A DNA stretch of 64,000 bases from an uncultured Phycisphaerales bacterium (GTDB lineage Bacteria; Planctomycetota; Phycisphaerae; Tepidisphaerales; Tepidisphaeraceae): assembly GCA_963755915.1 (NCBI GenBank), contig CAVWLP010000003.1, positions 96,001-160,000 of the forward strand, in the 5' to 3' direction. The notes below the pieces were generated by a model. That model did not search any database. It saw only the letters and a program-made list of their open reading frames with translations, and was not told where the DNA came from. Shown in pieces: positions 12,396 to 57,388 of the stretch (position 1 is the first letter of the stretch; the number at the start of each line of letters is the position of its first letter). The position numbers were made by a program, and so were the translations under genes.

Positions 12396-13637
12396 TTAGG
12401 CCGCGTCGGCGACGATGTGCAGCGCTGGTTGGCGATCGATGTCGGGCTGGTATTCGGGGACGAACCGGCAAAGAGCCTGGACGATTTCGCGGTGAGTGGC
12501 GCTGGTGATGGCGCTTAGAGTTTGAAGCATCTGCTCAATCTGCTCCGGCGTCGCCCGGGGGAGTTGCCAGACGCGGATTTTGGGATGGCTGGTCGGGCGG
12601 GTTTGCTCGCTGGCGCAAGCGAGTTCTTCGTAGAGCTTTTCGCCGGGGCGGATGCCGGTGAATTCTATTTGGATGTCCTTGTTGGGTTTGAGGCCCCGGC
12701 CGCGGATCATTTCTTTGGCGAGTGATAATATCTTGACGGGCTTACCCATGTCGAGGATGAAGATTTCCCCGCCGCGGCCGATGGCGCCGGCCTGCATGAC
12801 GAGCTGGCTGGCTTCGGCGATGGTCATGAAATAGCGTTTCATCTCGGGGTGGGTGACGGTCACGGGGCCGCCGGCGTCGATCTGCTTGTTGAAGATGGGC
12901 ACGACGCTGCCGCTGCTGCCGAGGACGTTGCCGAATCTCACCGCGACAAATCTCGTGCGGGAATTCTCGGTGTTCAGGGATTGGACGTAGAGCTCGGCGC
13001 AGCGCTTGGTGGCGCCCATGACGCTGGTGGGATTCACGGCTTTGTCGGTGCTGACCATCACGAACGCGGCGGCGTTGCAATCGCGCGCGGCATCCGCGAC
13101 TAATCTTGTGCCCAGGACATTGTTCTTGATCGCTTCGCCGGGGTTGATCTCCATCATGGGGACGTGCTTGTGGGCGGCGCAGTGAAAAACGACGTGGGGC
13201 TCGAAGCGCTGGAAGATCTGGGAGATGCGGCGCGAATCGCCGATGTCGGCGATGACCGGGATGATTTCCGCGCCGACCCAGCGGTGGCGGAGTTCGCGGT
13301 CGATTTCGAAAAGATTGTTCTCAGCTTGATCCAGAAGGATCATCCGGCGCGGGCAGAATTTCATGGACTGGCGGCAGATTTCAGAGCCGATGCTGCCACC
13401 GGCGCCGGTGATGAGGATGTCTTTGTTGGCGAGGAAACGCTGAAGCTCGGGGGTGTCGAGGCTGACGGGGCGGCGGCCGAGGAGATTGTCTAAAAGGGGG
13501 GACGTGATTTGAGGATTTCGAGAGACGCGCTGGGCAAGCCCGGCAGCTACACGGGGAGTGGAGGCGGCGCCGCGCGTGGTTTGGCGAGGCGTTGGCTTTC
13601 GCGGCGCACGCGCGTGGGAGGGTCCGCCTGGTGGCAT
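12396..13637 (-). CDS. CapD/PglF-like nucleoside-diphosphate-sugar 4,6-dehydratase; start uncertain
   Basis: TGAGGSIGSE, AAHKHVP, STDKAVNPTSVMGATK, RFGNVLGSSGSV, RPGEKLYEEL. Confidence 0.92.
   Translation of the reverse strand: MPPGGPSHARAPRKPTPRQTTRGAASTPRVAAGLAQRVSRNPQITSPLLDNLLGRRPVSLDTPELQRFLANKDILITGAGGSIGSEICRQSMKFCPRRMILLDQAENNLFEIDRELRHRWVGAEIIPVIADIGDSRRISQIFQRFEPHVVFHCAAHKHVPMMEINPGEAIKNNVLGTRLVADAARDCNAAAFVMVSTDKAVNPTSVMGATKRCAELYVQSLNTENSRTRFVAVRFGNVLGSSGSVVPIFNKQIDAGGPVTVTHPEMKRYFMTIAEASQLVMQAGAIGRGGEIFILDMGKPVKILSLAKEMIRGRGLKPNKDIQIEFTGIRPGEKLYEELACASEQTRPTSHPKIRVWQLPRATPEQIEQMLQTLSAITSATHREIVQALCRFVPEYQPDIDRQPALHIVADAA
13523..13557. repeat. GTAG-type REP, empty form
   Basis: Minus strand GTAGCTGCCGGGCTTGCCCAGCG; homolog at 16156-16214. 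Confidence 0.75.
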
Positions 13638-13742: not shown

Positions 13743-13812
13743 CCCCCTCCCCGACCCTCCCCTCTTCGAGCCTGAGCCTCAGAGCCGAAGGCCGGATTAC
13801 CGGGGGAGGGGG
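13743..13812. repeat. REP-like hairpin interrupted by a 30-bp palindromic insert
   Basis: CCCTCCCC[TCTTCGAGCCTGAGCCTCAGAGCCGAAGGC]CGGATTACCGGGGGAGGG. Confidence 0.65.
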
Positions 13813-13813
13813 A

Positions 13814-15705
13814 ATGAGCGGGATTCTTGCGTTGATGGCTGTGGGACTTGCGGCGTGCGCGACACATACAGCCCCCCCACAGCAGCCGGTGGCGGCGGCG
13901 CCGACTCCTGCGACTGCGCCCTCGGTGGTGGTCAGCGATGCGCCGGCGGCAACGGATTCGGATCCGAAGGATACGCTTCCCTATCTGGCCAGCGATGAAT
14001 TGCAGGGGCGCGGCGTGGGGATGAAGGGGCTGGACATGGCGGCGGACATGATTTCAGGCGAGTTTGCCGCGGATGGTCTTAAGCCCGTGCCGGGATTGAC
14101 GGATTATTTTCAGCCGTTTGATTACACGACGCAGGGGGGGCCGGGGGCGAGGACATCGCTGGCGCTTGGGGCGCGGACGCTGAGGCTGGAGGATGATTAT
14201 CTGCCGATGCGGTTTTCGATCGAGGAGAAATTCAGCGCGCCTGCGGTTTTTGTGGGGTATGGCGTGAGCGCGCCGGAATCGGGGTATGACGATTACGCGG
14301 GAGTGGATGTGCGGGGCAAAGTGGCGATCGCGATGCGGTATGAGCCGATGAATGCGCGGAGCCAGAGCCGGCTGGTCGATGGGCCGGATGCGGGGTCATG
14401 GTCCACGCACGCGACGTTTGACGCGAAGGCGAAGGCGGCGGCGGATCATGGGGCGGTGGCGCTGCTGCTGGTGAATCCGCCGGATTCGGAGCCGGATTTG
14501 CTGTTGCCGTTTGCGGGGGCGTTTGCCAGCCCGGCGACCATCCCGGTAATCCAGGTGAAGCAGCATGTGGTGGAGGAAATTTTGGGGGCGGCACTGGCGC
14601 CGGATTTAAAAGCATTGCGCTCGCAGATCGACACGACGTTTAAGCCCTGCTCGACGGCGCTGGGGACCGTGAATGTTTCGGGGGAAGTGCAGATCGATAC
14701 GGTGACCGCGCATTTGAAGAATGTGATTGCGGTGATCCCGGGTACCGGGCCGACGGCAAATGAATATGTCGTGGTTGGGGCGCATTACGATCACCTGGGG
14801 CTGGGGCGATTGGGCGAAGCGTTTGGGCCACGGGGAAGCATTTATCATGGGGCGGATGACAACGCATCGGGGACGGCGACGCTGCTGGAGCTGGCGTCGC
14901 GATTGTCGCAGGCGCCGCCGCCGCGCGCACGATTGTGCTGATCTGTTTCACCGCGGAAGAAGAAGGGCTGGTGGGGTCGACGTATTTCATGAACCACTGC
15001 CCGATTCCGGCGGATAAGATCGTGGTGATGGTGAACCTGGACATGGTGGGACGCATTCGCGACCAGACGCTCTTTACCGGCGGGCAGGGAACAGCGAAGG
15101 ATTTCGACGCGATTTTGACGCAGGCGGATGAAGATTCGCCGCTGCAACTGAAGAGCATTGGCCGCGGCGGGCTGGGACCGAGCGATCATATGGCATTTGC
15201 ACGCCGGCATATTCCGGTGCTCTTTTTCTTCAGCGGGATTCATGCCGATTATCACCGCCCCACCGATACGGCCGACAAGATCAATTATGAAGGGATTGGG
15301 GAAGTTTGCGATTTCACGGCGAAGGTGGTTGCGGGGCTGGAGCATATGCCGCGGGATCCGTACATCGCGGAGGCGGATCGGGATTCGATGCATTTGTTTG
15401 GGACACCATTTTTCGGGGCCGACCCGATGCCGCGCGTGGAATTGGGCGTGCTGCCGGACATGGCGTCGCAGGAATCGCGCGTGGGGGTGCTGATCACGGG
15501 AACGCGGCCGGGGACGCCGGCCGAGGTGGCGGGGCTGCGCGAGGGGGATTTGCTCGTGCAGTTTGACGGGCAGAGGTTGGAAAATCTCATGGATCTGGAT
15601 CAGGCGCTGGGGCGGAGCAAGCCGGGGGATCGGGTCACGCTTCGAATCATTCGCGGGACGCAGACGCTTTCGTTTGATGTGATTCTCACGCAGAGGAAGA
15701 GTTAG
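13814..15705 (+). CDS. M28 peptidase lipoprotein with PA and PDZ domains; frameshift near 14930
   Basis: Lipobox LAAC, GAHYDHLG, GADDNASG, TAEEEGLVGS, NLDMVGR, SDH, YH, C-terminal PDZ. Confidence 0.92.
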
Positions 15706-15708
15706 GAC

Positions 15709-16143
15709 ATGGCCAAATCAGCAAGCGAAATCGGGATTGTCATCGTCGATCATGGCTCGCGCCTGGAGCAGAGCAACCGGATGCTGGAGGAGCTTGCAGG
15801 GTTGTTTGCGAAGCGGTTTTCCGAGAGATATGCGATTGTCGAGCCGGCGCATATGGAAATCGCGGAGCCGTCGATCGCCATCGCGTTTGATCGATGCGTT
15901 GCGCGGGGGGCGAAGCGCGTGGTGGTTTGTCCGTATTTTTTGGGGCCGGGCAAGCATTGGACGCAGGATATTCCCCGGTTGACTGCCGAGGCCGCGGCCA
16001 GGCATCCGGGGGTAAAATATCATGTTGCGCAGACGCTGGGGATCGATGATTTGATTTTGGATTTGCTGAACAAGCGCGTGGAGCATTGCGTTGGGTGTGA
16101 GTATGAGTGCGAGGCGTGCCGGGGGACGCTGCGGGCGGGGTGA
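15709..16143 (+). CDS. cbiX: CbiX/SirB-type sirohydrochlorin chelatase
   Basis: VDHGSR, AHMEIAEPS, PYFLGPGKH..DIP. Confidence 0.9.
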   Translation: MAKSASEIGIVIVDHGSRLEQSNRMLEELAGLFAKRFSERYAIVEPAHMEIAEPSIAIAFDRCVARGAKRVVVCPYFLGPGKHWTQDIPRLTAEAAARHPGVKYHVAQTLGIDDLILDLLNKRVEHCVGCEYECEACRGTLRAG

Positions 16144-16155
16144 TCGGAGAGACGA

Positions 16156-16214
16156 AGACGCGCCGGGCCGTTCGGCATTGCTCACGACAGGCAAGCCCGG
16201 CGGCTACACGGGGA
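16156..16214. repeat. GTAG-type REP carrying a 24-bp insert at 16169-16192
   Basis: Matches 13523-13557 apart from 2 substitutions and the insert CGTTCGGCATTGCTCACGACAGGC. Confidence 0.8.
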
Positions 16215-16228
16215 CGGGGGGAAGGGCA

Positions 16229-17641
16229 TTACTCCACCTGCCTAAGCTGGATCGTATCGACGACTTTGTCGTGGGCGAGGATGTTGGTGATGACGACGAG
16301 CCATGAGCCTTCGTCGGACCAATTTTTGCGTTTGAGATAGGCCATGGCGTTGAGGATGGTTTCTTCGGGGTCTTTGCTGAACGGCATGAGGAACGGCTCC
16401 ACGCCCCAGGGAAGCAGGAGCTGACGGAAGAGGGCTTCGTCGTCGGTGAAGGCGTAGATGGGGACGCCCACGGCGCGGAGGGCGGCCAGGGTGTAGGCGA
16501 GGAAGCCGCTGCGGGTGAAGACGACGATGCCCGATTTGCCGAGCTGCTGGGCAAGCACCGCAGCCGAGCGCAGCATTTTTGCCTTGGGTTCCTTGAGCTC
16601 GATGACCTCGTTGATGCCGCGTTTTTCAGTCGGCTCGATGGTGTTGACGATATTTTTCATCACTTCCACGCATTCCAGCGGATAGAGGCCCGTGGTGGTT
16701 TCGCCAGAGAGCATGACGGCATCGGCGCGCTCGCGGACGGCGGTGGAAATGTCGGAAATTTCGGCGCGGGTGGGCATGGGGGCGGAGATCATCGATTCCA
16801 GAAGATGGGTCGCGATGATGACCGGGCGTCCTTCGGTGAGGCAAAGTTCGACGATGCGGGTCTGGACGAGGGGGAGGGTGTGGTAATCGACTTCGATTCC
16901 CAGGTCGCCGCGGGCGACCATGATGGCGTCGGCGATTTTGACAATCCCCTCGAGGTTTCGCAGGCCGCCCTGGTCTTCGATTTTGGCGATGATGCGGGCC
17001 TTGGAGCCGAGATGATCGAGCAGCGCGCGCAGGACCAGGACATCGTCGCTGCGGCGGACGAACGAGAGGGCGATGAAATCGATGCCGGCGGCGACGCCGG
17101 CGCGGACGTCGCGCTCGTCTTTTTCGGTGAGGGATGGGAGATTCACGTCGACGCCGGGCAGATTGATATGCCGTCGCGAGCCGACTTTTCCGGGCGTGAG
17201 AACCCGGCACTGAACGTGGGTTTCGTCCTTGGTGAGGACCTGAAGACGGATCAACCCGCTGTCGAGCAGGACGATATTGCCGACCTGGAGATCGAGGGGC
17301 AGGCCGGGGTAATTGACGCTGACGCCGCGGCAGCCATCGGAGGGGGTTTTCGTGTAAAACTCGAAGGTGTCGCCGACCTTGAGGTCGATCGGTTCGGCGA
17401 CGACGCCGGTGCGGATTTCGGGGCCCTTCACATCCATCATCACGGCGACGTGACGTTCCACTTCCGCCGAAACCTCGCGGATTCGCTTGACGACTTCGGC
17501 GACCCATTCACCGGTGCCGTGGGCCATGTTGAGGCGGATGACGTCGACGCCGCTGGTGACAAGCTGCTTCAGCTTGTCGCGACTTTCCGTGGAGGGACCG
17601 ATTGTGGCAATGATTTTGGTGTGTCTGTAGTGACCGCGCAT
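16229..17641 (-). CDS. pyk: Pyruvate kinase
   Basis: TKIIATIGP, DVKGPEIRTG, IIAKIE, MVARGDLG, MLSGET. Confidence 0.98.
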   Translation of the reverse strand: MRGHYRHTKIIATIGPSTESRDKLKQLVTSGVDVIRLNMAHGTGEWVAEVVKRIREVSAEVERHVAVMMDVKGPEIRTGVVAEPIDLKVGDTFEFYTKTPSDGCRGVSVNYPGLPLDLQVGNIVLLDSGLIRLQVLTKDETHVQCRVLTPGKVGSRRHINLPGVDVNLPSLTEKDERDVRAGVAAGIDFIALSFVRRSDDVLVLRALLDHLGSKARIIAKIEDQGGLRNLEGIVKIADAIMVARGDLGIEVDYHTLPLVQTRIVELCLTEGRPVIIATHLLESMISAPMPTRAEISDISTAVRERADAVMLSGETTTGLYPLECVEVMKNIVNTIEPTEKRGINEVIELKEPKAKMLRSAAVLAQQLGKSGIVVFTRSGFLAYTLAALRAVGVPIYAFTDDEALFRQLLLPWGVEPFLMPFSKDPEETILNAMAYLKRKNWSDEGSWLVVITNILAHDKVVDTIQLRQVE

Positions 17642-47614: not shown

Positions 47615-48178
47615 TTAAGCATTTTCGCCCGGAACGGAGGGAGGTGGGATGGCTACCGGCCGTTCGGCGGCGTTCGCGGGCTTATGTGACTCTGAACCGC
47701 AGTTCCCTTCCGCGCTTCCAATTGGCGCAATTCCGGCGAAAGGTGCAAGCTCTCTGGTCTTTTGATGGTCAGCGAAGGCAACGCCTTGGTTCGTGAGACC
47801 CCGAAAATAGTGCTTCTGGAATCTTTGCCTTGGCGCAGCTGGATCGTTTATCGCTTGAGCGGCCCAAAATTCCTGCCGTGATTTGACCCAAATATCATAT
47901 CCCTTCGCCAATTCGGAGTTTTCGTTCAGCTGCGCAAAGCGTGGCCGAAATGCCTCCAAATCGAGACGTTTGTGGGGTACCAACATCGCGATTGGCTCGC
48001 CGGCGCGGAACATACATTTTTCGGGCCGCGTGAATTTCCAATTCATTGAAAACGACGCGAAGCTCCAGTCAGTTTCGACCAACCCCTCCAACGGGAACAA
48101 TCCGTCTTTGATAAAATTTGCCGGCCCTCGGCATAGAAGGTTCCATCCGGGAGGCGTGCGAAATACGTAGGGTAGCCA
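47615..48178 (-). pseudogene. DUF6065-like protein, 5'-truncated
   Basis: YVFRTPPGWNLLCRGPANFIKDG, ETDW..FSMNWKFTRP, QKHYFRG. Confidence 0.75.
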
Positions 48179-48500
48179 CCTATTACAAGTTCGCTTTCGT
48201 TCGCAATCCGTGGGACAGAGCCGTTTCTGCTGCGTTGTGGAGGGCAAAGTTTCCGCTTTGTGGGATAAGAGATCTTCGCGATTACGTCGAATGGGCGGAG
48301 CGTGTCAACAGGCTGAACTCGTTCACGGGTCATGAAGTTCATGCTTTGCCGCAATCCGCATTCTTAGTGGACCAAGATGGTCGACAGGCGGTCGACCGAA
48401 TCGGACGTTTTGAGAGTTTTAGCGGCGACCTGCGCCTCATTCTTGGCCGTTTTGAGTCGGATTTGGCAAGTATACCTCATATGAAGAAATCCTTGGGGCG
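48175..48500 (+). pseudogene. Sulfotransferase family 2 fragment, truncated at both ends
   Basis: KFAFVRNPWDRAVS, HALPQ, IGRFE; cut by IS21 at 48501. Confidence 0.8.
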
Positions 48501-48583
48501 TGTCAGTCATCACTTCAAATGCCACCACCGATCATCGGATCAAATGCCACCACGTCCGATATATCGCAATCGACCGTCCCATT

Positions 48584-49495
48584 TCAAATTGACGCCGAGT
48601 TGTTGACTACCGGCGAGGCCGCTTCGGCAGGCTGAACCCCCACGCCAGAAGACAATGGCTTTCTGGCATCGGTGTCTTCCGGAGGGGAAAGCCCTTCATC
48701 GCCGCCGGTACTCCGGCGTCCTCGCGGTTTGGTGGATTCGATGCTTTCAGCGGTAGGCTTCGCCTCCGCGGCACGGTCTCGCAACCGATAGCTTCTGCCG
48801 GTGATCGCGATCACCTCGGCGTTGTGCAGGAAGCGATCGAGGATTGCCGTGGCGGCCGGTACGTCGCCGATCAATTTGCCCCAGTCTTCGAGCGGCCGGT
48901 TGCTGGTCATCATGGTGGAGCGAACCTGGTAACGCCGCATGATGATCTCGAAGAGATATTCGCCGGAGCGTTTGGGCAATTGCTTCATGCCCATATCGTC
49001 GATGATGAGCAGATCGGGCCGGAGATACCGCTCCATGATTTTGTCCTGCTGGTTGAGGGCCTCATCGTGCAGGAAGTCGCGCACCACGTCGAAGATCGAG
49101 CGGTAAAGCACGACCGATCCGTTCTTGATGGCTTGGTATCCCAGTGCCTGGGCGATGTGACTTTTTCCCAGACCCGGCGGCCCGATCAGCAAGACATCCC
49201 GCGCCTCGCGGATGAACCGGCCGGTTGCCAGCTCGAAGATCTGCTTGCGTTTGACCGACGAGTTGAAGGAAAAGTCGAACTCGTCGAGGGTCTTGAGTTC
49301 CCGAAAGCCCGCGATCTTGACGCGCCGGGCGATCAGGCGTTCATTGCGAATGAGCAATTCATCCTGAAGCACCAGTTCCAAAAACTCGCCGTGGGAAAGC
49401 TGATGGCCGGCGGCTTCCTGCAAGCGCACGTCCAAGGTGGAGGCCAAGCCCGAAAGCCGAAGGCGGGTCAGGGCGGTTCGTAACGATTCGTTCAT
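48584..49495 (-). CDS. istB: IstB ATPase
   Basis: GPPGLGKS, LLIIDD, TSNR, AILDRF, SYR. Confidence 0.95.
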   Translation of the reverse strand: MNESLRTALTRLRLSGLASTLDVRLQEAAGHQLSHGEFLELVLQDELLIRNERLIARRVKIAGFRELKTLDEFDFSFNSSVKRKQIFELATGRFIREARDVLLIGPPGLGKSHIAQALGYQAIKNGSVVLYRSIFDVVRDFLHDEALNQQDKIMERYLRPDLLIIDDMGMKQLPKRSGEYLFEIIMRRYQVRSTMMTSNRPLEDWGKLIGDVPAATAILDRFLHNAEVIAITGRSYRLRDRAAEAKPTAESIESTKPRGRRSTGGDEGLSPPEDTDARKPLSSGVGVQPAEAASPVVNNSASI

Positions 49496-49505
49496 AAATC
49501 TCCTT

Positions 49506-50326
49506 TCAAAAAAGTGGAGGCTTTGCCTCCACGGGGGTGTTATCGAAAGCGTCATGGACCAGTTGGGAGTAATCCGAAAGCGACCGGATCAGGGGATGCT
49601 CGGCGACGAACTCGAACTGTTGCTGTTGCGCGGCGGATTCCGATCGTTTCAGCAGATTGCGGATGTCGCGCAGCCGATGGGTGCCGTGCCCTTGAGCCAC
49701 CTGACAGGCCTGTTCGATCATTTTGGCGGGATGGCGATGCGTGAGACTGACCAGCCCCATCACCACGCGCAAGGCGTGAATCCCCCGGCAATTCAGGACA
49801 TTTTCAGCCCATTGGCCGGCGTGGGGACCGATGGCGCTGGCCTTGTTCATCCACCAGGCCGCGCCGCGTTCGATCCCGCCGCGCTTCTCGGGAACGATGT
49901 GACGATCATCGGTGGCGAAGCGTCCCGGCTCGTGCTGAACGTGGATGGCAACCTGCCGAAGCTGAGAATCAAAGAGCCGGACGACGTGCCCGTCCCAGCG
50001 CGCCCAGATGGTCCGGCCGAGGAACTCCGGCGGCGCCGAGTAATACGCCTTGGCCACCTCCACGTGGCCATCACGGTTGACGATCCGCTGGGCTTCCTGA
50101 AAACAGGGGAACCGTCCCGGCGGAAGAGGCAATAGCGCCGGCTTCTCCACTTCCGCGAACATCCTCGCCACCTGCTTGCGCGTGGTGCCATGAATGCGCG
50201 TGTCGGCGATGGTCGATTCCCATTCGGCCAGGAATTGGTTCTGCTCGGAAAGGCTCTTGAAGGTTCGGGCCTTGAGAGCATTCCCCTGGGCGTATCCGAC
50301 GCCGCGTTCGATCTTTCCCTTGTGCC
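49506..50326 (-). pseudogene. istA: IstA transposase, C-terminal part
   Basis: Begins at HKGKIERG; RIHGTT, DGHV...YYSAP. Confidence 0.9.
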
Positions 50327-50442
50327 TGTCATGGGCGCGCAAAACCGGCCAATTGAGGGCGCGCCAAAACCGGCCATTTTGAGGCACAGGAGATTGGGTT
50401 ATCGACCTTGGCTTTCGGCGGTTGCCGCAAGCCAATGGTGGG

Positions 50443-52197
50443 ATGGCCAATCAACTCAAGATGGCGGAAGTACAAGCAATTTTGGCACTTGCGCAGCGGC
50501 TGGTCCAATCGGAACATCGCCCGCCAACTCGGCGTTCACCGGGAGACCGTTGGACGCCACATCCGGTTGTCGGGCGGCGATCCTGCGGCGCCCGGATCGG
50601 ATTCAAAACCGGCCAGCGCGCCCCTCGGCTCGACGGTGCTCGCCGCAGGCGGCTCGACGGTGCTCGCCGCAGGCGGCTCGACGGTGCTCGCCGCAGGCGG
50701 CTCGACGGTGCTCGCCGCAGGCGGCTCGACGGTGCTCGCCGCAGGCGGCTCGACGGTGCTCGCCGCAGGCGGCTCGGAGAGCGCGCCCACCGGGTTATCC
50801 GGCGCGCCCATCGGGTCGGTCAGTACGGCATCGCCCTGGCGTGAGGTCATTGTTCAGAAGTTGGAAGCCGGGCTGACGGCCCAGCGGATTTATCAAGACA
50901 TCTCCAGCGATCACGGCTATGCCGGCAGCTATTACAGCGTGCGCCGGTTCATCAAGAAGCTCTCGGCTGCCGCGCCGGCGCCCTTTCGCCGGATGGAATG
51001 CGAGCCGGGAGCCGAGGCGCAGGTGGACTTCGGCCGGGGTGCGCCCTGGTCGGTCCTGACGGCAAACGCAAAGCAACCTGGGTCTTCCGCATTGTGCTGA
51101 GCCACAGCCGCAAGGGGTACGCCGAGGCGGTGGAGCGGCAGACGACCGATGATTTTCTGCGTTGTCTGGAAAATGCCTTTACGCACTTCGGCGGGATGCC
51201 GTCAGCGCTGGTGATCGACAATCTTCGCGCGGCGGTGACGCGGGCGGACTGGTTCGAGGCGGAGTTGTGTCCCAAGGTCCGGTCGTTCGCCGAACATTAT
51301 GGAATCGCCATTCTGCCCACCAAGCCGTACACGCCGCGGCACAAGGGGAAGATCGAGCGGGGCATCGGCTATGTGAAGAGCAATGCTCTCAAAGGCCGGC
51401 AATTCGCCTCGCTCTCGGATCAGAACGCGCATCTGCTGACGTGGGAGAAGAGCGTGGCCGACACGCGCATCCACGGCACGACGCGGCGGCAGGTGAAGGA
51501 AGTCTTCGAGCAGGTAGAGAAGCCGGCACTGTTGGCTCTGCCGCCGGTGCGATTCGATCTTTTCACCGAGGCGTTGCGCAGTGTTCACCGCGACGGGCAC
51601 GTGGAGATCAAGGGGGCGTACTATTCGGTCCCGCCGGAGTTTTTGGGCCAGCGGGTCTGGGCGCGGTGGGACGGGCGCACGGTCCGGCTGTTCGATCAGA
51701 AGATGCGTGCGATCGCTCTGCACGCGCAGCGTCCGCCGGGCAGGTTCTCGACGCAAGACGCCCATATCCTGCCGGAGAAGATCAGCGGCATCGAGCGTGG
51801 AACGACCTGGCTTCTCCAGCGGATCGAATGCATCGGGCCGCACGCCACGCAGTGGGCGCAGTCAATGCTTCAGCATCGCGGCATCGAAGGCGTGCGCGTG
51901 TTGATGGGGCTGCTGTCGCTGGCCAATCAGCAGCCGCGACCGGCCGTGGAACGAGCCTGCGAGATTGCTCTGGGGCATGGCGCGTATCACCTGCGCTCCC
52001 TGCGGCAGCTCATCGAACACCAAAACGGCGCGCCGGTTCAACAACACTTCGAGTTTGTTCAGGAACATCCAATCATCCGCGGACTGGCCGATTACGGACA
52101 GTTCGTACGCGACGCAATCACCCAAGCGGAGGCTTTGCCTGCCGCACAACCTTTACAGGCCTGCCCTGAGCAGAGCCGAAGGGAGTCCACCCCATGA
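50443..52197 (+). CDS. istA: IstA transposase; frameshifts near 50497 and 51045
   Basis: HTH (IARQLGVHRETV), AQVDFG, VIDN, KGKIERG. Confidence 0.9.
50627..50770 (+). repeat. Six perfect 24-bp tandem units (GSTVLAAG) in the IstA linker
   Basis: (GGCTCGACGGTGCTCGCCGCAGGC) x6. Confidence 0.95.
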
Positions 52198-53084
52198 GAC
52201 CTTCGTTGATGCAGACGCTCAAGCAACTTCGGCTTTCAGGTCTGGCGAGCAGCCTTGAAGTTCGCCTGAGCGAGGCGGCCGGCAATCGGCTCGACCACAG
52301 TGAGTTTTTGGAACTGATCCTTCAGGATGAACTGAACGTCCGATCCAGCCGGCAGATCGGCCGGCGCGTCAAGGCGGCGATGTTCCGCGACACCAAAAAC
52401 CTCGACGAGTTCGACTTCTCCTTCAACACCTCCATCAAACGCAAACAGATTCACGATCTGGCCGCCGGCCAGTTCATTCGTGACAAACGTGACGTGCTCT
52501 TGCTGGGTCCGCCCGGCGTGGGCAAATCGTTTTTGGCCCAGGCCATCGGACACCAGGCGATCAAGAGCGGCTTGGTGGTCCTGTACCGATCCATCTTCGA
52601 CCTGGCCCGCGACTTTTTAGGCGACGAGGATCTGGGAGCCCAGGACAAGACGCTGGCCCGGTATCTCAAGCCTGATCTGCTTATCATCGACGACATGGGA
52701 ATGAAGCAGCTTCCGCGGCGCAGCGGCGAATGCCTGCTGGAGATCGTCATGCGCCGGCACGAGAACCGCTCGACGATGATGACCAGCAACCGTCCACTGG
52801 AGGACTGGGCCAAGCTGATCGGCGACGTGCCGGCGGCCACGGCCATTCTGGATCGGTTCCTGCAGCACGCCACGATCATCAACATCACCGGCAAGAGCTA
52901 CCGCCTTCGGCATGGGGGCCATTCGACTTCGCTCACGGCAGGCCAATCCGGGACACCGGAAAAGACAAATCCAAAAGGACGGCGGAGTACCGCCGGCGAT
53001 GAAGGGTGCTCCCCCCCGGAAGACACCGTGACAGAGCCGCCGTTGTCTTCTGATGTGGGGGTATCCGCCGGCCAGACGGCGTGA
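52194..53084 (+). CDS. istB: IstB ATPase
   Basis: GPPGVGKS, LLIIDD, TSNR; ATGA overlap with istA. Confidence 0.95.
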   Translation: MRPSLMQTLKQLRLSGLASSLEVRLSEAAGNRLDHSEFLELILQDELNVRSSRQIGRRVKAAMFRDTKNLDEFDFSFNTSIKRKQIHDLAAGQFIRDKRDVLLLGPPGVGKSFLAQAIGHQAIKSGLVVLYRSIFDLARDFLGDEDLGAQDKTLARYLKPDLLIIDDMGMKQLPRRSGECLLEIVMRRHENRSTMMTSNRPLEDWAKLIGDVPAATAILDRFLQHATIINITGKSYRLRHGGHSTSLTAGQSGTPEKTNPKGRRSTAGDEGCSPPEDTVTEPPLSSDVGVSAGQTA

Positions 53085-53206
53085 ACGGGGACCAATAACT
53101 CAAGGAACAGTTGCGTCGGATAGAACGGATGCGGTATAGAATACGTCAGCACATTGGCCGGTTTTGAAGCGCCCCGCCCTGGCTGGTTTTGGCGCGCCCC
53201 GTGACA

Positions 53207-54016
53207 GTCAACGCCCCAGATTCAACAGATTCCATGCAATGCGATCACCTGGCCACAGCAGGAGCGGAAGCATTTTCGGAAGAGGGAATCGCCGAGTTGG
53301 CCGAAACGATGCGAATCCACGGGATTTTAGAGGCGATCGGCGTGGTGCGGGATAAGGATGGATATTCCGGCCTGTGGGGTCAGCGCCGATGGCTGGCGGC
53401 CAAGCGGCTGGGGTTGGAGTACGTACCGGCCGTGGTGCTCGACAACATTGAATCGGACGCGGAGGCGGTGGAAATCAGACTCATCGAGAACACCTCTCGG
53501 GAAAACCTCCGCCCCGGCGAGTTGGCGGACGGCCTGGCACGCCTGATGGATATGCAAAAACTCACCGGTGCCGACGTAGCCAAGCGTGTGGGGATGAATC
53601 CCGCATCAGTAACAAAGACCCTTACACTTCGGCAACTGCCGGACTGGATTCGCGAGAAAATCGATGCCGGCGCGATTAGCGCCGGGGCGGGATATGAACT
53701 GGCTCGCATCAAAGACCCGGAAATTCAGGCGGAATTGGCACGGCAAGTGGCCAACGGCGCGTTATCTCGTGATGGTCTGGTTGCGATGGTCAAAGCCCGA
53801 AAACGCGGAGGGAAGAAAGCCGGAACATCAGGAACAAGAGTCACCGCGATGCTCGATTCGAACCGGAGTATTTCATTAAGCGGCAATGGCATGGATTCGG
53901 TCGAAGTGCTGATTCAGTGGCTGGAAGATCTTCTGACCAAGGCCCGCAAAGTGCGGCCTCAGAACTTAGCCCTGGGCACGTTCATCAACATGCTCCGGGA
54001 CCAGTCCAAAACGTAA
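53207..54016 (+). pseudogene. parB: ParB/RepB/Spo0J protein; start apparently lost at the IS21 end, frameshift near 53272
   Basis: IAELAETMRIHGIL, GQRRWLAA, IENTSRENL, HTH. Confidence 0.8.
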
Positions 54017-57314: not shown

Positions 57315-57388
57315 CGTTCCCGGCGGGGCTCGAACCTGCAACCTTCGGCTCCGGAGGCCGACGCTCTGTCCAATTGAGCTACGGGAAC
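57315..57388 (-). tRNA. tRNA-Arg(CCG); CCA not encoded
   Basis: Acceptor GTTCCCG/CGGGAAC; anticodon arm TCGGC-CTCCGGA-GCCGA; GGTTCGAG T-loop. Confidence 0.97.

Follow-up and report, generated by a model that had tools for sequence, protein, structure and literature searches.

How can a segment of only 24 nucleotides be present in one copy of a repeat and missing, to the base, from another? The question is raised by a 64,000-nucleotide stretch of DNA from an uncultured bacterium of the Phycisphaerales, referred to here as the window (C3:96001-160000 of the source genome G000, which has 6.63 Mb and 59% GC in 3 contigs). The window contains two copies of a repetitive extragenic palindrome (REP), named REP-1. 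The copy at 13528-13557 equals the one at 16161-16214 minus exactly 24 bases, except for 2 substitutions, and the additional bases, unit A, lie at the tip of the hairpin. Read on the opposite strand, the 16161-16214 copy consists of GTAG and then the hairpin, which is the classical REP layout. It is flanked by convergent open reading frames (ORFs) ending at 16143 (+) and 16229 (-). A preliminary description of the window grouped A with three similar 24-mers, B, C and D, as variants of one tiny mobile unit. It placed all four correctly, with six tandem copies of B and a C in front of each variant, and it took the REP at 13528-13557 as an empty-site homolog. That REP is indeed the same repeat without the unit, but it is a paralogue and not the orthologous site of A. 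The analysis reported here favours, with a probability of about 0.7, the reading that A is one member of a family of non-autonomous DNA units, 23-30 nt long and without genes, that enter and leave as exact blocks. Four unit types are distinguished, W, which is the type first described, and X, Y and Z; A-D denote the four variants of the window.

The 24-nt difference recurs throughout the source genome. Among the 95 REP-1 hairpins found, 60 are empty and 18 carry exactly 24 extra bases. A is one of these 18, and the 17 others carry X at the same position. X has the sequence GG(C/T)TCGACNNNGCTC(G/A)CCGAAGTC, is always 24 nt long and is present in ~90 copies. The empty and filled REP-1 forms bear out the proposal that the 24-mer is a discrete segment that can be told apart from the repeat hosting it. 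At least 8 unrelated flank families host X in this genome, heptamer arrays among them, and empty and filled forms stand side by side in class a (CCACGGYRGCGS^CGTGGG; 34 empty, 12 with 24 nt, 2 with 54 nt), class c (22 empty, 7 with 24 nt, 2 with 54 nt), class d, a heptamer array (42 empty, 4 with 24 nt, 1 with 54 nt), class e (7 empty, 3 with 24 nt) and class f (18 empty, 2 with 24 nt). Unit Z is longer, 30 nt, and has 30 copies with the same layout as the other units. Its host is another hairpin repeat, seen in the window at 13745-13815 (-) as CCCCCTCCCCCGGTAATCCGG ... GGGAGGGTCGGGGAGGGGG, of which 119 copies are empty, 10 carry 30 nt and 1 carries 60 nt (Z inside Z). Nearly all copies of the units outside insertion sequences (IS) lie in repeats and not in identifiable genes.

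The units are also found inside one another. In the 54-nt inserts a Z interrupts X after the tenth base, and one 55-nt insert (C2:701005) is X containing Z containing an X-like unit. X nested in X occurs after positions 8, 13 and 17, and X in inverted X and X in Z in X are present as well. Three-deep nests were also seen in other genomes, both X in Z in X and X in X in X (L160, L161). Some X-bearing repeats form inverted pairs, for example at C2:858093 and C2:858174. A search for a larger autonomous element split by X or nested in it yielded, among the 60 shortest of 149 candidates, only Z, the 55-nt nest and 2-nt variants.

Comparison with G001, a genome of the same genus that is ~90% identical to the source genome (86-93% across six 20-kb regions), revealed exact presence and absence at orthologous loci. 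Thirteen X sites of the source genome outside IS were compared. Three are clean 24-nt indels with flanks that align without gaps (Table 1) and one is near-clean, a filled versus an empty REP-1 hairpin with a difference of 24+1 nt. At three sites both genomes have the unit, which at one of them differs by a substitution; one is a replaced region and five could not be aligned. In the reverse comparison of 13 X sites of G001, one is a clean 30-nt indel, Z inside an orthologous X, and two are filled in both genomes. Whole X-bearing host repeats are absent from the source genome at three sites, a REP-1 with X stands opposite unrelated sequence at one, and the remaining six have a one-sided flank match or no paired one. 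The clean indels anticipated by the preliminary description are therefore found for the sister units X (24 nt) and Z (30 nt) and not for copy A. The G001 ortholog of the REP at 13528-13557 is likewise empty, and the host repeat of Z has many copies in G001 too. No orthologous empty site for A was found in G001, where the spacer carries another repeat. Four soil-metagenome runs of one study contain parts of the region, and no RNA run is listed for it. Across 20 kb with three X sites, the contigs of these runs break at the repeats and list no 24-nt skip, which leaves the data uninformative either way.

The units share a common layout of three bases, TCGRC, a variable segment of 3-6 nt, GCTC, a triplet that pairs with the initial one, and a tail of 6-9 nt. 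In 48 distinct members, positions 1-3 and 16-18 are Watson-Crick paired in 126 of 144 cells, compared with 92.5 in shuffles (sd 3.9, maximum 107 in 2000). The covarying 3-bp helix first noticed in four variants thus holds in the larger set. The pair types are GC and CG at the first position, GC, AT, TA and CG at the second, and TA and CG at the third; the units of other genera add the helix types CCT/AGG, GCT/AGC and CCC/GGG. Relatedness among the members inflates these counts, but so many different pairs would not easily come about in another way. Any role of the helix would be played inside a complex or within the host hairpin. On its own, A has a folding energy of -0.6 kcal/mol, which does not improve on 175 of 200 shuffles.

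Membership of A-D was assessed in two ways. The consensus of the preliminary description gave 9 matches in the window and 0 in 100 shuffles, a test that is circular because the pattern had been built from A-D themselves. A weight matrix was therefore trained on 38 distinct X and Y units with A-D excluded. It scores A at 15.2, B at 25.0, C at 9.9 and D at 20.5 bits. A control on the reversed genome (13.25 million positions) gave 45 matches at >=10 bits, 8 at >=14, 1 at >=16 and 0 at >=18, and the real genome gave 294 at >=16 bits, 203 of them borne by IS and ~91 elsewhere. B and D are certain members. C is a probable one, the chance expectation for a match of its level inside the IS being ~0.02. 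A is a diverged member, and its membership is secure given its exact loop position.

The W type, 24 nt with the tail RCAGGC, is rare in the source genome outside the IS. It is dispersed in genomes of four other genera, with 16 (G015), 13 (G017), 12 (G018) and 13 (G020) copies, and its backwards control gave 0 matches in all 31 genomes compared. One of these genomes, G014, was flagged as unpublished, and no claim depends on it by itself. A typical form in the other genera, CCTTCGACTGCGCTCAGGGCAGGC, is the same form as unit C. The Y type, CGTTCGRC...GCTCACGGCGAGC, is 23-24 nt long and occurs in 11 copies, at times 2-3 in tandem. Its last 7 bases, GGCGAGC, are also the left arm of the sole REP-1 subtype that hosts Y (11 of 11 copies). 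Y could equally be a 16-17-nt insert accompanied by a 7-nt duplication of the REP arm.

The target was characterized from 117 unique X sites in other genomes. The base at -1 is C in 114 of the 117 and the base at -2 is a purine in 96; C follows at +1 in 61 and G at +2 in 66, giving a preferred RC^CG. X and W end in C, and Z ends in G and follows G in 30 of 30 copies. The base that ends the unit also precedes it, C in the case of X and W and G in the case of Z, so that the two junctions have one base in common. This base may have been duplicated or may mark the point of a crossover, and insertion is without target duplication beyond it. The flanks form perfect stems of at least 6 bp at 23 of the 117 sites; permuted flank pairs give 3.9, with a maximum of 9 among 200 permutations. 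Where the stems are long (9-16 bp) the unit lies 0-4 bases from the dyad. Eight of the 117 sites are inside other X units.

Within the genus, the copy number of strict X ranges from 0 to 62, with X present in 10 of the 12 other genomes. Outside the genus it is present in 2 of 6 other genera of the family and in 0 of 12 genomes from other families of the class; the backwards control was 0 in all 31. X nevertheless reaches far beyond the class. A species-genome collection (one genome per species) contains at least 121 exact X stretches, titles being named for 80 of these, compared with ~1 expected by chance from 21 specified positions and ~1.2e12 positions searched. The single sequence GGCTCGACTGAGCTCGCCGAAGTC accounts for 89 of the 121 matches listed. 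At least 14 phylum labels are found among the matches listed: Planctomycetota (several orders), Chloroflexota, Verrucomicrobiota, Nitrospirota, Nitrospinota, Bdellovibrionota, Latescibacterota, Desulfobacterales, 'delta proteobacterium', Acidobacteriota, Tectomicrobia, Sumerlaeota, Patescibacteria, one actinomycete and one Promethearchaeota bin. Since several matches come from long contigs or chromosomes (0.4-7.7 Mb), mis-binning cannot be the explanation for every one. X flanks identical to those of the source genome were found in Phycisphaerales records. X is also present in viral contigs, 18 stretches in 15 IMG/VR contigs. A 68.8-kb viral contig has three exact X (L196, L202, L210) and a 13.3-kb contig has two (L204, L205); these two may be vehicles for spread between hosts.

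The other three variants of the window have a different setting. B, C and D all lie in one element of the IS21 family, which has the IS21 layout of istA (HTH and DDE integrase core) followed by istB (AAA+ IstB). Its protein-family matches are IstB_IS21 at 223 bits, rve at 42.8 bits and Mu-transpos_C_2 at 54 bits, with HTH_23 in IstA at 24.1 bits, slightly below the cut-off. The element has ~30 copies in the genome, and 5 of 5 other copies compared align across 50327-53210 at 98.3-99.8%. The 233 genome-wide matches to the consensus of the preliminary description divide into 172 of B, 31 of D, 29 of C and 1 of A. The three gene-borne variants of the preliminary description, lying in a single multicopy IS, represent one locus copied ~30 times and are not independent gene insertions. 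Its translations of units in genes, GSTVLAAG, ACPEQSRR and HSTSLTAG, are correct, and its suggestion that the units preserve the reading frame comes down to arithmetic. Both 24 and 30 are multiples of 3, which makes frame preservation a by-product of unit length; 23-nt units exist, and the copies outside IS are nearly all in repeats.

The 30 B arrays of the genome have 1, 3, 4, 5, 6, 7, 8, 10 or 12 units and contribute 8-96 residues to IstA. The array length differs among IS copies that are 96-100% identical, which makes the array a variable number tandem repeat. The IS was also compared with IS21 homologues of other genera (71-80% identical) and with a diverged paralogue in the window. At B the low-complexity linker could not be aligned and no clean 24-nt indel was found in these homologues. 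None was found at C either, where the G034 homologue has 39 nt fewer in two gaps, and at D all three homologues lack a 30-nt block that covers most of the unit and coincides with it only partly. Insertions into linkers or tails that tolerate them would fit the sequences around B, C and D, but none of the differences is a clean 24-nt indel. Since W is dispersed in other genera, the IS may have acquired its units in a host in which W was active.

Table 1. Coordinates of the units, their hosts and other features. Plain numbers are window positions; C2 and C3 are contigs of the source genome.
Feature	Position	Strand	Remarks
Empty REP-1 paralogue	13528-13557	+	arms 13528-13535 and 13538-13545, loop AA, tail 13546-13557
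Unit Z, CCTTCGGCTCTGAGGCTCAGGCTCGAAGAG	13762-13791	-	centre of hairpin repeat, ~13745-13815
Host REP-1 copy	16161-16214	+	arm 16161-16168, unit A, loop AA 16193-16194, arm 16195-16202, tail GCTACACGGGGA 16203-16214
Unit A, 24 nt, CGTTCGGCATTGCTCACGACAGGC	16169-16192	+	W/Y type; between REP left arm and AA loop
IS21-family element	50327-53210	+	carries B, C and D
istA, split into two ORFs	50408-51100, 50998-52197	+	within the IS
istB	52194-53084	+	within the IS
Six tandem B units, GGCTCGACGGTGCTCGCCGCAGGC	50627-50770	+	IstA linker between HTH and catalytic domain
Unit C, CCTTCGGCTCTGCTCAGGGCAGGC on the minus strand	52159-52182	-	IstA C-terminal tail, just before the istB start codon
Unit D, CATTCGACTTCGCTCACGGCAGGC	52920-52943	+	IstB tail, after the conserved SYRLR motif
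Clean 24-nt indel, class f	C2:4142162		source genome versus G001
Clean 24-nt indel, heptamer array	C2:2695889		source genome versus G001
Clean 24-nt indel, class a	C3:1278487		source genome versus G001
Y-type examples	C2:4617965-4618019, C2:4102751-4102783		source genome
RAYT-like ORF, 247 aa	L023:1432-2172 (C3 ~1124976-1125816)		between its own hairpins, L023:1350-1430 and 2150-2190
W-like 24-mer, CGCCCGATCGTGCTCACCGCAGGC	C2:1050215, C2:740940, C2:1884994, C2:3969487, C3:918906		five copies
Diverged IS21-family copy	~48000-50450	-	abuts left end of the multicopy IS
ORF directly right of the IS	53189-54016	+	possibly ParB-like
tRNA gene	57315-57388	-	Rfam, 63.9 bits

The istA gene of this element consists of two overlapping ORFs in different frames, and its G034 homologue is in a single frame. 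Either a frameshift is shared by a family that still reached ~30 copies, or frameshifting is programmed. In the diverged IS21-family copy next to it, IstB is 68% and the C-terminal part of IstA 58% identical, and the N-terminal part of istA is missing; the arrangement looks as if a younger IS had landed in an older one. The ORF to the right appears ParB-like from its translation, judged by eye. The W-like 24-mer (12.1 bits) has identical flanks in an open frame of ~425 aa, which is perhaps another unit-carrying mobile element. A scan of the window at the Rfam gathering thresholds gave the tRNA only and no family for the unit or its host, and a permissive scan of 16080-16280 gave two chance-level matches only.

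By what route could such short units move? A mechanism has to account for units that come and go exactly, overlap the flank by one base, prefer exposed loops and are so small that only a single-stranded free form is possible; together these features lead to a tentative proposal of single-strand cutting and joining in trans. The units may move as single-stranded DNA, possibly as a 24-nt circle, through a trans-acting nuclease-ligase. A double-stranded circle this small would be physically implausible. The predicted activity, a structure-specific nuclease-ligase of the HUH/Y1 kind or something comparable, would cut after the terminal base and join the unit 3' of a matching base in exposed single-stranded loops. 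Whatever the mechanism, the sites that units enter or leave on the favoured reading include REP hairpin tips, heptamer-repeat junctions, other copies of the units, and tolerant linker or tail regions of the IS21 element, which then carries its units around. Tandem arrays (B 1-12 units, Y 1-3) might arise since the units end in the preferred RC, or by plain replication slippage. Similarly tentative is the wider idea that X, W and Z are all substrates of one unrecognized insertion activity, conserved or repeatedly transferred across phyla, which would move single strands of 23-30 nt with a one-base overlap. Recognition by structure, as the preliminary description suggested, and the trans-acting enzyme itself are inferences, the helix alone being thermodynamically negligible (-0.6 kcal/mol).

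A number of observations weigh against exact-block mobility. No mobilizing enzyme was identified. The window has no suitable gene except the IS21 transposase, a DDE enzyme for a 2.9-kb element; the preliminary description had likewise seen no candidate there. It had pointed to a co-occurring REP-associated tyrosine transposase (RAYT) as a possible lead, and the source genome does have two Y1-transposase genes, one at L024:1252-1836 and one that is RAYT-like. The latter matches REP_Tyr_transpos at 57 bits, below the NCBIfam cut-off of 80, and Pfam Y1_Tnp at 57 bits, above the cut-off. It is bracketed, however, by hairpins of its own, GGGGACGCAGCTAG(N7)CTAGCTGCGTCCCC, of which there are only 7 in the genome and which differ from the 24-nt unit. 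Both Y1 families have multiple copies throughout the taxonomic family, and neither varies with the copy number of X. G011 has 14 X and no match to either Y1 query at E <= 1e-10, and G003 and G008 have 0 X, yet 5 and 4 matches to the RAYT-like family. This is weak evidence, the genomes being incomplete and closely related. No replichore strand bias is present (16+/14- versus 10+/19-), unlike IS200/IS605. The helix is only 3 bp long and the unit alone folds no better than shuffles. A, B, C and D all lack a clean orthologous empty site, and the outgroups do not show the direction of the clean indels, gain or loss: at C3:1278487 the whole 112-nt host repeat is absent in ten outgroup genomes, and those compared at the class f site gave no alignment. 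Lastly, the position and orientation of the unit are constant within each flank family among the listed copies, as is also expected from a single founder insertion that spread with its host repeat.

The last point also fits an alternative in which the unit is a loop variant of REPs that hitch-hikes with them, the indels arising from gene conversion, that is, short-patch recombination between paralogous REPs. Such an origin fits the three sites where whole X-bearing REPs are present in one of the two genomes and absent from the other, a fourth where REP-1 with X faces unrelated sequence, the ten outgroups without the whole REP at C3:1278487, the constancy within flank families among the listed copies, and the failure to find an enzyme. 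What makes it unlikely is that the identical 24 letters stand in 117 distinct flank contexts in other genomes and in at least 8 unrelated flank families in the source genome alone, and that units are nested in themselves at several positions and lie in IS coding DNA. Each new flank context needs at least one exact, non-homologous insertion. The letter identity across many phyla, the covarying helix with its conserved unpaired segments, and the frequent location in intergenic hairpins between convergent genes could instead point to a functional motif, a binding site or a small structured RNA or DNA signal under selection, which had been recruited and was not selfishly mobile. This appears rather improbable, as self-nesting ruins the host copy, the copy number varies from 0 to 62 within one genus, and inserts are found inside transposase coding sequence; there is no Rfam match, the fold is no better than that of shuffles, and a function would leave the exact indels unexplained while being compatible with mobility.

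It could also be argued that A-D are unrelated and comprise one loop variant of a REP, one minisatellite in coding sequence and two matches due to chance. The pattern was, after all, built from A-D, C reaches only 9.9 bits, and B acts as an ordinary variable tandem repeat. Against such a coincidence, B and D exceed all 13.25 million control positions with a matrix made without them, the W tail type is dispersed in four other genera with zero backwards-control matches, and A stands at the exact position of X in 17 other REP-1 copies, which makes chance resemblance very improbable. An RNA-templated route is a further rival. On balance, units that enter and leave as exact blocks account best for the data. 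The observations of the preliminary description were confirmed and its interpretation is partly supported.

If there is an insertion activity acting across phyla, these units would be the smallest mobile DNA known, and phylogenetic profiling could use a letter-perfect unit shared by phyla to track down the enzyme. The sequence is conserved strongly enough for a search for the responsible gene by co-occurrence to be feasible. The presence of the same unit in many phyla turns a lineage curiosity into a general question, whether a widespread enzyme or a common host process is at work. There are practical consequences as well. The units break short-read assemblies and add variable peptide segments to proteins, and gene callers may read them as spurious small ORFs.

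In the library of papers searched, none contains the 24-mer, its complement or the encoded peptides, and a search for nested insertions in REP loops found nothing. Several known systems share some of the features. Rickettsia palindromic elements are palindromes of ~100-150 nt that lie in-frame within genes and are tolerated as an extra peptide. An extra peptide is tolerated here too, in IstA and IstB, but only the IS-borne copies were identified as coding, and the reading frame survives simply because each unit has 24 nt. IS1397 and others are said to be full IS, with transposase and target duplications, that insert at REP hairpin loops. The loop insertion is similar; the piece found here is 24 nt long and encodes nothing. 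Nor do the units have the marks of miniature inverted-repeat transposable elements, since reading them revealed no terminal inverted repeats, a single shared junction base and no target-site duplication of 2 nt or more.

IS200/IS605 elements move by single-strand 'peel and paste', exactly, 3' of a short sequence, with separate end hairpins and a lagging-strand bias. The units here resemble them in exact gain and loss, in the absence of target duplication, in insertion 3' of a short sequence and in the preference for exposed single-stranded hairpin DNA, and a single-stranded circle would be their only plausible free form. They differ in having one weak helix and no left- or right-end hairpins, a target of ~2-4 bases, no lagging-strand bias, and Y1 genes that do not track the copies. 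The REP and REPIN systems, as far as the available parts of the sources describe them (Bertels and Rainey 2011, PMC3116915; Di Nocera et al. 2013, PMC3733652), are matched by the host, a GTAG-tagged REP. The same parts mention REPs inside other palindromes and inside genes, and REP families that are mostly lineage-specific (PMC3733652). Inverted pairs of X and the presence of Y1/RAYT-like genes are further likenesses. The description of a GTAG/CGTC-tagged palindrome of 20-40 nt fits the host REP-1 and not the 24-nt unit, which does not lie beside the RAYT-like gene and is shared across phyla.

The closest known kind, compared by description only and from partial sources, appears to be the small dispersed repeats (SDRs) of the Nostocaceae. 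SDR1-8, described in 2008, reportedly occur in Nostoc punctiforme and its relatives, are said to be ~21-27 nt long, and reportedly nest in each other and in heptamer repeats. In the excerpts available, SDRs are called 'some 20 bp long' elements that 'might be mobile' (PMC2884548) and are listed beside REPINs as being of unknown origin (PMC3116915), and SDR5 is described as inserting precisely between the 3rd and 4th base of HIP1 (PMC4390886). Both kinds are gene-less and dispersed, with lengths of ~20-27 nt in SDRs and 23-30 nt here, and both show precise insertion into repeats or palindromes, with empty and filled forms in the present case. A planctomycete now shows the same SDR-like behaviour: its units are gained and lost exactly, nest, and insert into hairpins and heptamer arrays. 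The hosts differ, SDRs having been reported only in the Nostocaceae, a family of cyanobacteria, according to the part of the source available (PMC5861425), and the present host belonging to the Planctomycetota. Further differences are the one base identical at both junctions and the presence of a letter-identical unit under at least 14 phylum labels among the matches listed, plus viral contigs. The behaviour itself is thus of a known but poorly understood kind; what makes the present case notable is the letter identity across phyla.

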